Assembly: GCA_049322215.1 (NCBI GenBank)
Contig: JBMORU010000001.1
Span: forward strand, 1,046,143-1,110,142
DNA: 64,000 nt
Reading direction: 5' to 3'
Origin: Patescibacteria group bacterium
GTDB taxonomy: Bacteria > Patescibacteriota > WWE3 > UBA101185 > UBA10185
Of this stretch, positions 53,556 through 55,071 are shown in pieces. A program made the translations under genes and the position numbers. Position 1 is the first letter of the stretch; every line of letters begins with the position of its first letter. The notes under the pieces were generated by a model. The model saw only the letters and a program-made list of their open reading frames with translations. It was not told the DNA's origin and did no database searches.

Positions 53556-54332
53556 CTACAGTATAAGAATTAGATAAGCTAAAAAAAGTCCAATAAGCAT
53601 AATTACTCCAGTCAATATAAAGTTAAAGAGTATAGTTATTTGAATAGACTTTTTAGCTAAAGGATTTCTACCTAAAGCCTCTACCCCACTCCCTGATGTT
53701 TTACCAAAAGAAGCAAAGCCAACTACAAAGGATCCAGCAACAACAAGTGCAGCAAGTATATACCTTAAAGAAGCTACTGGAGTTAAGAAAGGTGCCTGAA
53801 CACCAGATCTTAGAGTTTCTATTAAATTTACCTGTACATTGTCAGAATTTATAAAATTAGCGCGTATATCCACTAAAACCAAAATAGTTCCTTGGGAATC
53901 AGGTTCTTCCGCAGTAAAACTTTCTAAAGCCACACCTAATATTTGTCCTGATTTGTCTGCTCTTTGTGCAGTGCCCGCTACAGAAGACGACGTCACAAAA
54001 TCGCCCTCATTAATGTTTCCATTAATGTTTGATACCCTTACTTCTGCTTCACCAGAAGAAACTACTTGAATAGGATTCTCTAGTGCTAAATCGTTAAAAT
54101 ATACGGCAGGAGTTTCTGTAACTACGCCATACATATATTCATCAAAAGGTTTGTCAGACAAATAATAAGTACCATTACTAAATGATATAAGATCCCCATG
54201 AGAGACTTGAAAATCAATAGGCGTTGATATTGAAATGCCAGCAGCGTTAAATTGAGCAAAAGCATAACCACCGCATAGCGAAAAAAACAAAATACCTATT
54301 ATATAAATACATAACTTATGAGTAGCTTTCAT
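53556..54332 (-). CDS. secreted domain fused to a c-subunit-like helical hairpin (atypical atpE candidate)
   Basis: Signal peptide; about 190-aa soluble domain; C-terminal '[51 protein letters not shown]' resembles the c-subunit Gly-rich helix, 'ARNP' loop and helix 2, but helix 2 has no Asp/Glu. Sits exactly where atpE would be. Confidence 0.4.
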
Positions 54333-55071
54333 ATATTTAGCTTACATTAAATATGGGTACTAGGCTATATATGCTCCAGATTTTTCAGCGACGTACACAA
54401 ATAGTGTATTAATATGGGTTGTGTAGTTAAACTTTACTAAACACTGTGTTTATAACAGTTGGTAAGGTTTAATTATTAAAATAGGGATGCTAAATTTAGA
54501 AGCCTTTTGTAAATAACTCAGTTTGAAATAATATAGTAAGTTGAAAAAAATTTAAATAAGGCTACAACTTTGTTTTGCATAAATTTTATTCACAAAAACC
54601 AGGAACATTTTGTATAAATTTCGTAAACTAAAATTTAGGCCATTAAAAGTGGCAAATATTACCAAGAGAATTTTACAAAAAACTTTTTAAACATTTTTCT
54701 TTTTTGAATGCAGCTTTCAAGTTTAAATGGGTGCGACTTGCCTTTTAGTGTAAAAATAACCCTACTTTCTAGAAAATTAAATAGAAACCAACTTGTACTC
54801 TCTGCAAAAACTATAGGACTCAAACTTTACTCAAAAATCAAGCGTCAATTTGACAGCCCTGTCAAGGCAAAAAAGACATAAAATTGCTGGCTATTACAGA
54901 TGGTCTTATTTTCATATGAAATATTATGACAACAACGGGTTGTTAAAACTTTGTTTTTTCTTTAAATAAAAACAAAAAATAACGAGTAAAGTATTGACAC
55001 GCACATACCAAGAACGTACCATTAATGTAACCTTACCAATAGTGATGGTACAAGGTTTTGCGAAGGTTTAT

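Follow-up and report, generated by a model that had tools for sequence, protein, structure and literature searches.

Can an F-type ATPase operon encode an ion-driven machine when it has no gene for the a-subunit and when the protein standing in for its c-subunit has lost the ion-carrying residue? The question is raised by a 64-kb stretch (the window) of a 1.11-Mb contig from a Patescibacteria bacterium of the WWE3 lineage, to which our reading of the genome was confined. By ORF calling, seven consecutive open reading frames (ORFs) lie on the minus strand of the window, from 48174 to 54332. The first, which we call X, encodes 258 aa and is annotated on the contig as a hypothetical protein; the following products are 270, 164, 496, 290, 467, and 110 aa long. 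According to Pfam and NCBIfam, the order is X, b-like, delta, alpha, gamma, beta, and a short epsilon. An initial annotation of this DNA had read the genes as X-atpF-atpH-atpA-atpG-atpD-atpC, with X in the atpE position. The identities agree with that order, b only weakly, and X heads the operon both here and across the 84 loci examined.

We found that X is a c-subunit derivative that is unable to bind ions and carries an outward domain like D4 of phi29 gp12. Apart from a b-like anchor, no other Fo-type component is encoded in the operon, whose F1 part is complete, and the X-headed arrangement is conserved in much of the Patescibacteria.

The C-terminal hairpin of X is a c-subunit homologue

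Three parts can be told apart in X:

54255..54332, minus strand: X residues 1-26, predicted signal peptide (sequence reading; AlphaFold helix 2-20)
53838..54254, minus strand: X residues ~27-165, predicted extracellular all-beta domain of the phi29 gp12 D4 / Peptidase_G2 (beta-tulip) type (pLDDT, Foldseek)
53559..53780, minus strand: X residues 185-258, c-subunit-like helical hairpin with a GRNPLA loop and no carboxylate (profile and fold comparison)

The N-terminus reads like a signal peptide, with MKATHK, a hydrophobic core, and AFA/Q, and 'AQ' closes this segment in the family consensus too. The soluble domain, first put at ~190 aa, turned out to be a folded ectodomain of ~135 aa plus a linker of ~20 aa. 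A helical hairpin built around ALGRNPLA spans residues 185-258, and its GRNPLA loop aligns to the ARQP/GRNP of canonical c-subunits. In the AlphaFold2 model, the mean predicted local distance difference test score (pLDDT) was 92, reaching 95-97 across residues 185-257.

The likeness of this hairpin to c-subunits, first noticed from the sequence alone, was borne out by three kinds of comparison. When a profile of 115 X homologues was run against the PDB sequences, the seven best matches were all c-subunits (E 1e-3 to 5e-2), and the sole further match was a surface-anchor protein at E 0.87. Aligned by hhalign to nine canonical c-subunits, the hairpin profile gave a probability of 89.9% and an E value of 1.7e-6 over 69 columns. 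Foldseek superposed the modelled hairpin on solved c-rings (2wie, 9itt, 6fkf, 6n2d, and others) with TMt 0.75-0.90, a root-mean-square deviation (rmsd) of 1.1-1.7 A, and 25-27% identity. In the reverse direction, a hidden Markov model (HMM) of the nine canonical sequences, searched against 4969 ORFs of the 84 loci, recovered 62 of 88 ORFs that match X, and every other ORF scored no better than E 0.6.

Single-family models were far less sensitive. A Pfam scan of X gave no match, ATP-synt_C included. The NCBIfam F0F1 subunit C models gave 20.1, 17.3, and 12.1 bits against cutoffs of 128, 122, and 85, and long variants of X, described below, reached 11-15 bits against a subunit c cutoff of 24. 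The HMM check proposed initially was thus negative in Pfam and weak (~20 bits) in NCBIfam, whereas profile-profile and fold comparison were positive.

These low scores are what would favour reading X as an unrelated membrane-anchored surface protein whose hairpin resembles a c-subunit by chance of hydrophobic composition: ATP-synt_C is blank, and NCBIfam gives 20 bits where 85-128 are needed. However, the profile-profile, PDB-profile, and fold comparisons are specific to c-subunits, the loop is invariant, and the protein holds the atpE position in 84/84 loci and belongs to a family found in 247 species genomes. We consider a chance likeness highly improbable; the hairpin of X is a true c-subunit homologue.

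The ion site is lost while the hairpin is strongly conserved

Across 175 non-redundant X sequences, eleven hairpin positions are invariant (R190, Y191, A219, G221, R222, N223, P224, L225, A226, G248, and L256), and N237 and T241 are kept in 166 and 147 sequences, respectively. A stripe on each helix, together with the loop, is invariant or nearly so. The essential carboxylate of canonical c-subunits falls on X residue 242, which is F in 70, A in 37, I in 24, G in 17, and V in 12 of the 175 sequences, among others. Asp or Glu is found nowhere at positions 234-258, except at 243 in one sequence. The ion-site columns of canonical rings would correspond to F209 and residue 242 (F/A/I/G/V), as inferred by counting from the conserved Pro. 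As first described, helix 2 of X contains no acidic residue, and the essential carboxylate is absent in 175/175 family members.

In ordinary enzymes, the RQP/RNP loop of c contacts gamma and epsilon. The invariant positions indicate strong constraint on the hairpin, strongest in this F1-contacting loop, and show that it is under strong purifying selection. Judged by its residues, the ion site is gone throughout the X family. As X resembles c-subunits in fold, loop, and homology but lacks the carboxylate, we classed it as an F-type ATPase variant outside the canonical c family.

No a-subunit or ordinary c-subunit accompanies X

A phmmer search (--max) with E. coli AtpB returned nothing below E 0.3 in the window and the 84 loci. 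The polytopic ORFs of the window encode M50 peptidases, an ion channel, DUF2157 and DUF5671 proteins, and unknowns; one of them (45259-45900) is Peptidase_M50 in Pfam, and the seven further ORFs with at least three predicted transmembrane (TM) segments gave no ATP-synt_A. In relatives, the precomputed Pfam annotations within 10 kb of X likewise included no ATP-synt_A, and none of the 84 loci held an a-like ORF or a second c-like ORF besides X. The initial annotation, which had described an operon without atpB, was therefore upheld for the operon, for the 64-kb window, and for 10 kb around X in the 84 loci.

A short atpE hidden beside X was also considered. The gap between X and the b-like gene is 35 nt, which leaves no room for one. 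Upstream of X, the region 54333-55071 (739 bp) contains only ORFs of 54 and 57 aa, neither of them c-like, consistent with the earlier statement that these 740 bp have no ORF of 60 aa or more. One correction is needed: at 55072, this region gives way to the start of a very large gene on the plus strand, which continues beyond the end of the window.

The absence of recognisable Fo genes has been met before. Kantor et al. 2013 (PMC3812714) described one ATPase operon in a WWE3 genome, one of their complete and near-complete genomes, in which the presumed a, b, and c were without homology to known subunits and the putative c resembled a transmembrane protein in OP11 and WWE3 ATPase operons. By their position, these three genes would be X, the b-like gene, and delta. 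In the literature on WWE3, Katanobacteria, Microgenomates, or OP11 and ATP synthase, we found only this paper to remark on the anomaly. The other papers searched on these lineages list a plain 'F-type ATPase', and a 2024 perspective treats the role of the Patescibacteria ATP synthase as a puzzle.

Could the operon nevertheless belong to an ordinary ion-coupled ATP synthase, with atpB and perhaps a normal atpE elsewhere, and with X as an accessory subunit or a minority member of a mixed c-ring, like the carboxylate-poor c1 subunit found in Acetobacterium woodii or the c'' subunit in V-ATPases? Other bacteria are known with split atp operons or mixed rings, the A. woodii ring 4bem is among the PDB matches, JGI calls several X homologues 'subunit c/K', and our inspection of the genome covered 64 kb. 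Against this, no second c-like or a-like ORF occurs in the 84 loci and the window, X takes the atpE slot in every operon, the TM helix of the b-like protein has no conserved interface, and no recognisable a or c was found in the WWE3 genome of Kantor 2013 (PMC3812714). We regard the ordinary synthase as distinctly unlikely. Between the two options first put forward, an accessory subunit and a highly atypical Fo sector, the latter is favoured by the carboxylate missing in 175/175 sequences, by X being the sole c-like ORF in the 84 loci, and by Kantor 2013.

The X-headed operon is widespread

Clustered at 90%, the homologues of X number at least 500. Searching exhaustively with the hairpin only gave 499 representatives of 50% clusters, in which the hairpin is always at the extreme C-terminus. 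A pattern scan found X in 247 species-representative genomes labelled WWE3, Levy-, Shapiro-, Ames-, or Woesebacteria, or Microgenomates, and several homologues bear the JGI name 'subunit c/K'. Third-party-annotation metagenome-assembled genomes with X are often titled 'uncultured Candidatus Saccharibacteria' or 'Gammaproteobacteria', although their X and operons are of the WWE3/Microgenomates type; these titles are probably placeholders or errors.

Gene order was essentially universal in the 84 loci, as X, b-like, (delta), alpha, gamma, beta, and epsilon. All seven ORFs were intact in 39 of them, and most of the others end at a contig edge or miss only a delta detectable by phmmer. The b-like gene directly follows X in 78/84 loci, which answers the initial call to look for the X-atpF arrangement in relatives. 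In one relative (L003, 10776-12491), an inserted gene for phosphoglycerate mutase (iPGM) separates X from the b-like gene.

The F1 sector looks catalytically competent

The six genes that follow X are:

52708..53520, minus strand: b-like peripheral-stalk subunit, 270 aa (weak F0F1 subunit B matches, TIGR01144)
52217..52711, minus strand: delta (OSCP) (PF00213, 29.2 bits against a cutoff of 22.3)
50761..52251, minus strand: F1 alpha (PF00006, ATP-synt_ab, 227 bits)
49887..50759, minus strand: F1 gamma, divergent (PF00231, ATP-synt, 79 bits)
48490..49893, minus strand: F1 beta, catalytic motifs intact (TIGR01039 atpD, 483 bits against a cutoff of 463)
48174..48506, minus strand: epsilon, N-terminal beta-sandwich only (PF02823, ATP-synt_DE_N, 38.6 bits)

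All five F1 subunits, alpha, beta, gamma, delta, and epsilon, are thus present by Pfam and NCBIfam. Beta lies above its equivalog cutoff, while alpha (NF009884, 427 bits against 554) and gamma (TIGR01146, 63 bits against 194) lie under theirs. The P-loop (GDRKIGKT) and Arg-finger (SVTRVG) of alpha are readable, as are the P-loop, catalytic Glu, Walker B, and DELSEED-like ESELSDDD segment of beta. On these motifs, F1 appears competent for catalysis.

In the window and 68 relatives, epsilon is a short protein (79-123 aa, with a median of 88) that matched PF02823 alone. Bacterial epsilon usually has ~135 aa with two C-terminal helices, which inhibit hydrolysis in many bacteria. By its length and domain match, the epsilon of this family lacks these inhibitory helices.

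The b-like protein matched TIGR01144 at E 2.8e-3 and other F0F1 subunit B models weakly. It has one N-terminal TM helix and is otherwise a long helical protein, poorly conserved in the TM helix and conserved in its C-terminal part. An unconserved TM helix is expected if it has no a-subunit partner, and fits a plain lipid anchor.

We also asked whether the operon might be a functionless ATP synthase relic, decaying in a reduced genome. Patescibacteria genomes are indeed reduced, and one complete Microgenomates genome is without any ATP synthase genes (PMC7143001). But a relic does not sit well with seven intact ORFs in 39/84 loci, with eleven invariant hairpin positions at 38-59% overall identity, or with the retained catalytic motifs, and we find this the least credible of the explanations considered.

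The ectodomain of X resembles phage appendage domains

Residues ~27-165 of X were modelled as all-beta with a pLDDT of 95-98. The PDB matches of this domain by Foldseek were capsid decoration or cement proteins and the phi29 gp12 C-terminal fragment 3gqh (TMt 0.51). Among the predicted viral structures of BFVD, the best matches were tail proteins and 'preneck appendage' proteins, with E values of 1e-10 to 1e-7, 20-29% identity, and an rmsd of 2-4 A; preneck-appendage proteins gave E 2e-9, TMt 0.61, and rmsd 3.2 A. The beta-tulip fold links the capsid decoration and gp12-type groups, and gp12 D4 is a trimer-forming autochaperone (preprint 10.1101/216911). A Pfam scan of X itself gave no match to PF11962 (Peptidase_G2). 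In phi29, Xiang and colleagues reportedly found in 2009 that D4 of gp12 is first cut from the protein and then set free in an ATP-dependent manner.

X proteins of a sister clade are longer (390-590 aa) and carry one or two cytoplasmic HTH_17 domains, of the helix-turn-helix (HTH) type, and a TM helix ahead of the X-type beta domain and hairpin. In such variants (P0197, P0214, P0217, P0224, P0241, and P0258), HTH_17 and a TM anchor replace the signal peptide, a swap that fits an ectodomain outside the cell. Long X heads the same b-delta-alpha-gamma-beta-epsilon operon in L084, L085, L087, and L088.

X is divergently paired with a giant surface protein gene

Upstream of X lie:

54333..55071, no strand: spacer separating the divergent X and giant genes, 739 bp (no ORF of at least 60 aa)
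55072..64000, plus strand: predicted giant surface protein, >2976 aa, continuing past the window end (translation; PF00376 MerR)

Within its >2976 codons in the window, the giant gene encodes a MerR-type winged HTH, one TM helix, and a repetitive region predicted to be extracellular. Its N-terminus passed two Pfam cutoffs (PF00376, 37.7 against 28.2 bits; PF13411, 26.0 against 21.6). In a single-sequence model, confident for the HTH core only, that core had a pLDDT of 80-94, and its best PDB matches were BldC (rmsd 1.5 A, 30% identity), GlnR, NmlR, RacA, CueR, and SoxR, at E 4e-3 to 3e-2. An 891-nt unit (297 aa) occurs in the gene in at least six tandem copies with 75-89% identity, with a 303-nt sub-repeat; Tandem Repeats Finder reported none, because the period exceeds 500 nt. 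Giants beside X in relatives have 1928, 2556, and 7185 aa.

Of 78 loci with 600 bp or more of sequence upstream, 65 showed the divergent pairing of X with a giant gene. The spacer, 739 bp here, has a median of 695 bp and a range of 93-1948 bp in the 65 related loci, an unusual length in so streamlined a genome. The largest clusters of downstream neighbours, rplA and nusG, served as a control and were present in 16/61 and 14/61 loci. In the two loci with long X and readable flanks (L085 and L087), there was no giant gene upstream. One WWE3 locus (L004) has no giant; a 225-aa protein with a MerR-like motif (NRLRYYTKIGWL) is encoded ~2.8 kb upstream of X at 6422-7096 on the minus strand, among DprA- and ComM-like genes. 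In L001 (1-3804) and L003 (1-986), a second giant with Laminin_G_3 / DUF2341 follows the MerR-type giant.

A homologue search with the first 170 aa of the giant gave one match, and an HMM of giant N-termini gave no match to the HTH of the long X variants. The two HTH types belong to a common superfamily (MerR / HTH_17) but are not closely related.

A second tie between X and the giants is found in the ectodomain. An X-ectodomain homologue was detected (phmmer 1e-13) near the C-terminus of the giants in L025 (2073-9695), L036 (2085-8966), L069 (2206-3756), L072 (2577-8708), and L079 (3-4346), and weakly in L001. It sits 200-400 aa before the C-terminus, with a 'G(I)DFAEYF' motif ahead of it in L069, L072, and L079; X starts right behind its signal peptide, without the 'SGIADFAEYF' segment of the giants. 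Of three giants scanned, the sequence overlapping the domain start scored 32-33 bits for PF11962 in L072 and L079, against a cutoff of 25, but did not pass in L025. A jackhmmer search from the X-like domain of a giant recovered 84/84 X proteins. The domain was undetected in most other complete giants.

These observations bear on a regulatory explanation, in which the link to the giant is purely one of control: a tethered MerR/HTH_17 protein would sense the surface and control the divergent ATPase operon, X would regulate its own operon in the fused clade, and the X ectodomain would be an anchor or sensor with no mechanical output. MerR regulators are classically divergent from their targets, the giant N-terminus lies above the Pfam MerR cutoff, and its best fold matches are DNA-bound MerR-type domains. 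Further, the spacers are long and conserved in length, with a 15+15-nt near-palindrome at 54430-54460, ~100 bp upstream of X. On the other side, only weak palindromes were found and no operator was identified in 54333-55071, where promoter-like sites were not above shuffle expectation. The explanation also does not account for ion-site loss with a near-invariant hairpin, or for the D4-like domain common to X and some giants. A purely regulatory link seems doubtful to us, though it is compatible with the mechanism preferred below, and both can hold together. We also looked in the spacer for an RNA element, which was dropped together with the operator: Rfam had no family at gathering or E-value thresholds in 54333-55071.

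A small M50 gene (site-2 protease type; window 45259-45900, minus strand) lies a few kb past the operon, beside secE-nusG-rplK-rplA, and is placed in the same way in a distant relative (the JGI 994-kb contig of P0099). It could matter if the tethered HTH is freed by intramembrane cleavage, or its placement could be plain synteny. Elsewhere in the window, a 710-aa DUF2157 protein with ~16 predicted TM segments (40818-42950, plus strand) adjoins an Ion_trans_2 gene (42947-43780, minus strand), ~5 kb from the operon, and four tRNA genes, Thr-TGT, Tyr-GTA, Thr-GGT, and Trp-CCA, lie at 34477-36085 (plus strand).

A proposed F1 motor that moves no ions

With hydrophobic residues in place of the mid-membrane ion site and no a gene with the operon, the complex should not interconvert an ion gradient and rotation by the known mechanism. 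That mechanism is excluded here unless further subunits are encoded elsewhere. As F1 looks competent and epsilon is without its inhibitory helices, ATP hydrolysis is the most likely mode.

Taken together, we lean, with slightly better than even confidence, towards an a-less F1 motor that moves no ions, is anchored by an oligomer of X, and is coupled to the cell surface. X would be the c-subunit of a remodelled F-type ATPase. Mature X would expose its gp12-D4-like beta domain outside the cell and then span the membrane with its c-type hairpin, placing the GRNPLA loop on the cytoplasmic side, where it would touch gamma and epsilon. Held by delta and by a b-like stalk with a generic membrane anchor, the F1 motor may drive or hold the X oligomer, and the ectodomains may form a crown on the cell surface. 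The machine might be tied to the giant surface fibre protein transcriptionally, by an HTH on the common intergenic region, physically, by homotypic contacts of the beta domains, or in both ways. Ring formation, rotation, the direction of catalysis, and an output outside the cell are what we infer from this arrangement.

Going further, F1 might deliver ATP-driven torque or force through an ion-free c-ring to an extracellular crown resembling a tailspike autochaperone, and so help to assemble, release, or move the giant, tailspike-like fibres. This would recall the ATP-dependent release of phi29 gp12 D4, here across a membrane. We offer this step tentatively and think it unlikely.

Several points weigh against the ion-free motor. 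An atpB or ordinary atpE gene could lie elsewhere in the genome, as 64 kb of 1.11 Mb were read. By analogy to the trimeric gp12 D4 domains, X could be a trimer instead of a ring. Protomers of the long variants add a TM helix and a cytoplasmic HTH, which are hard to square with rotation past a b stalk, and the b-like stalk itself has no obvious fixed anchor for torque. Only ~5-7 of the giants examined detectably carry an X-like domain. Lastly, the moderate synteny downstream (rplA, nusG) means that part of the pairing between giant and X could be inherited gene order.

Comparison with known systems

X shares with canonical AtpE (PF00137) the two-helix hairpin (superposed at rmsd 1.1-1.7 A), the polar R-N/Q-P loop, the first place in the operon ahead of b and delta, and the predicted location of both termini outside. 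It differs in having no carboxylate on helix 2, no GxGxGxG motif, and no a partner nearby, in adding a signal peptide and an extracellular domain of ~135 aa, and in scoring far under the curated cutoffs. In A. woodii c1 and V-type c'', the carboxylate has likewise been lost from a rotor-type hairpin. However, these are a minority of the rotor subunits in their rings, which retain other ion sites and work against an a-subunit, whereas neither an ion-competent subunit nor an a-subunit was found with X in the window and the 84 loci.

The closest parallel in working may be the F1-like X0 ATPases of Mycoplasma (types 2 and 3; the M. mobile gliding motor MMOB1660/1670), in which F1-derived alpha, beta, and gamma, without a or an ion-binding c, are tied to large surface proteins. 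Both have an F1 core that is a-less, ion-site-less, and linked to large surface proteins. Unlike them, the WWE3 beta passes atpD, the operon retains delta, a b-like subunit, and a c-derived subunit, and it appears to be the sole F-type operon, not an extra paralogue. Models of the Mycoplasma proteins (MSC_0618/0619, MMOB1660/1670) gave 389 vs 570, 258 vs 520, 372 vs 600, and 378 vs 850 bits, each under the protein's own atpD or atpA score. The alt_F1F0 models of N-ATPases were also under cutoff (TIGR03305, 430 vs 752; TIGR03324, 374 vs 750).

The FliH-FliI-FliJ export ATPase is another F1-related enzyme docked at the membrane, with b/delta-like and gamma-like partners, and serves an extracellular assembly. 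The X operon resembles it in combining an F1-related ATPase with such partners at the membrane, but its subunits are true F1 orthologues by score and no export gate genes are adjacent. For the ectodomain, phi29 gp12 D4 and the Peptidase_G2 IMC domain share its fold, and it is also homologous in sequence to the PF11962-positive regions of giants. X differs from them in having no upstream fibre in cis and no 'DFAEYF' region, and in being fused to a membrane hairpin. The HTH proteins recall ToxR/CadC-type regulators and RacA, with a cytoplasmic winged HTH on a membrane, and DNA-bound folds of RacA and MerR proteins are among the best matches of the giant; here, however, the HTH heads a surface protein of 2000 to >7000 aa or the c-like subunit itself.

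Implications for Patescibacteria

These results suggest that annotation of the operon as an ATP synthase is misleading for WWE3 and many Microgenomates. If so, metabolic reconstructions that count it as ATP synthesis or proton pumping would be wrong for hundreds of species. F1 motors would have taken on a new role on at least one further occasion, independent of that in the mycoplasmas, and X would provide a natural c-ring without ion sites, relevant to the evolution of rotary ATPases. The tie to giant proteins would point to a cell-surface role in these host-dependent bacteria. If torque is indeed passed to the crown, bacteria without a respiratory chain would possess an ATP-powered extracellular machine.

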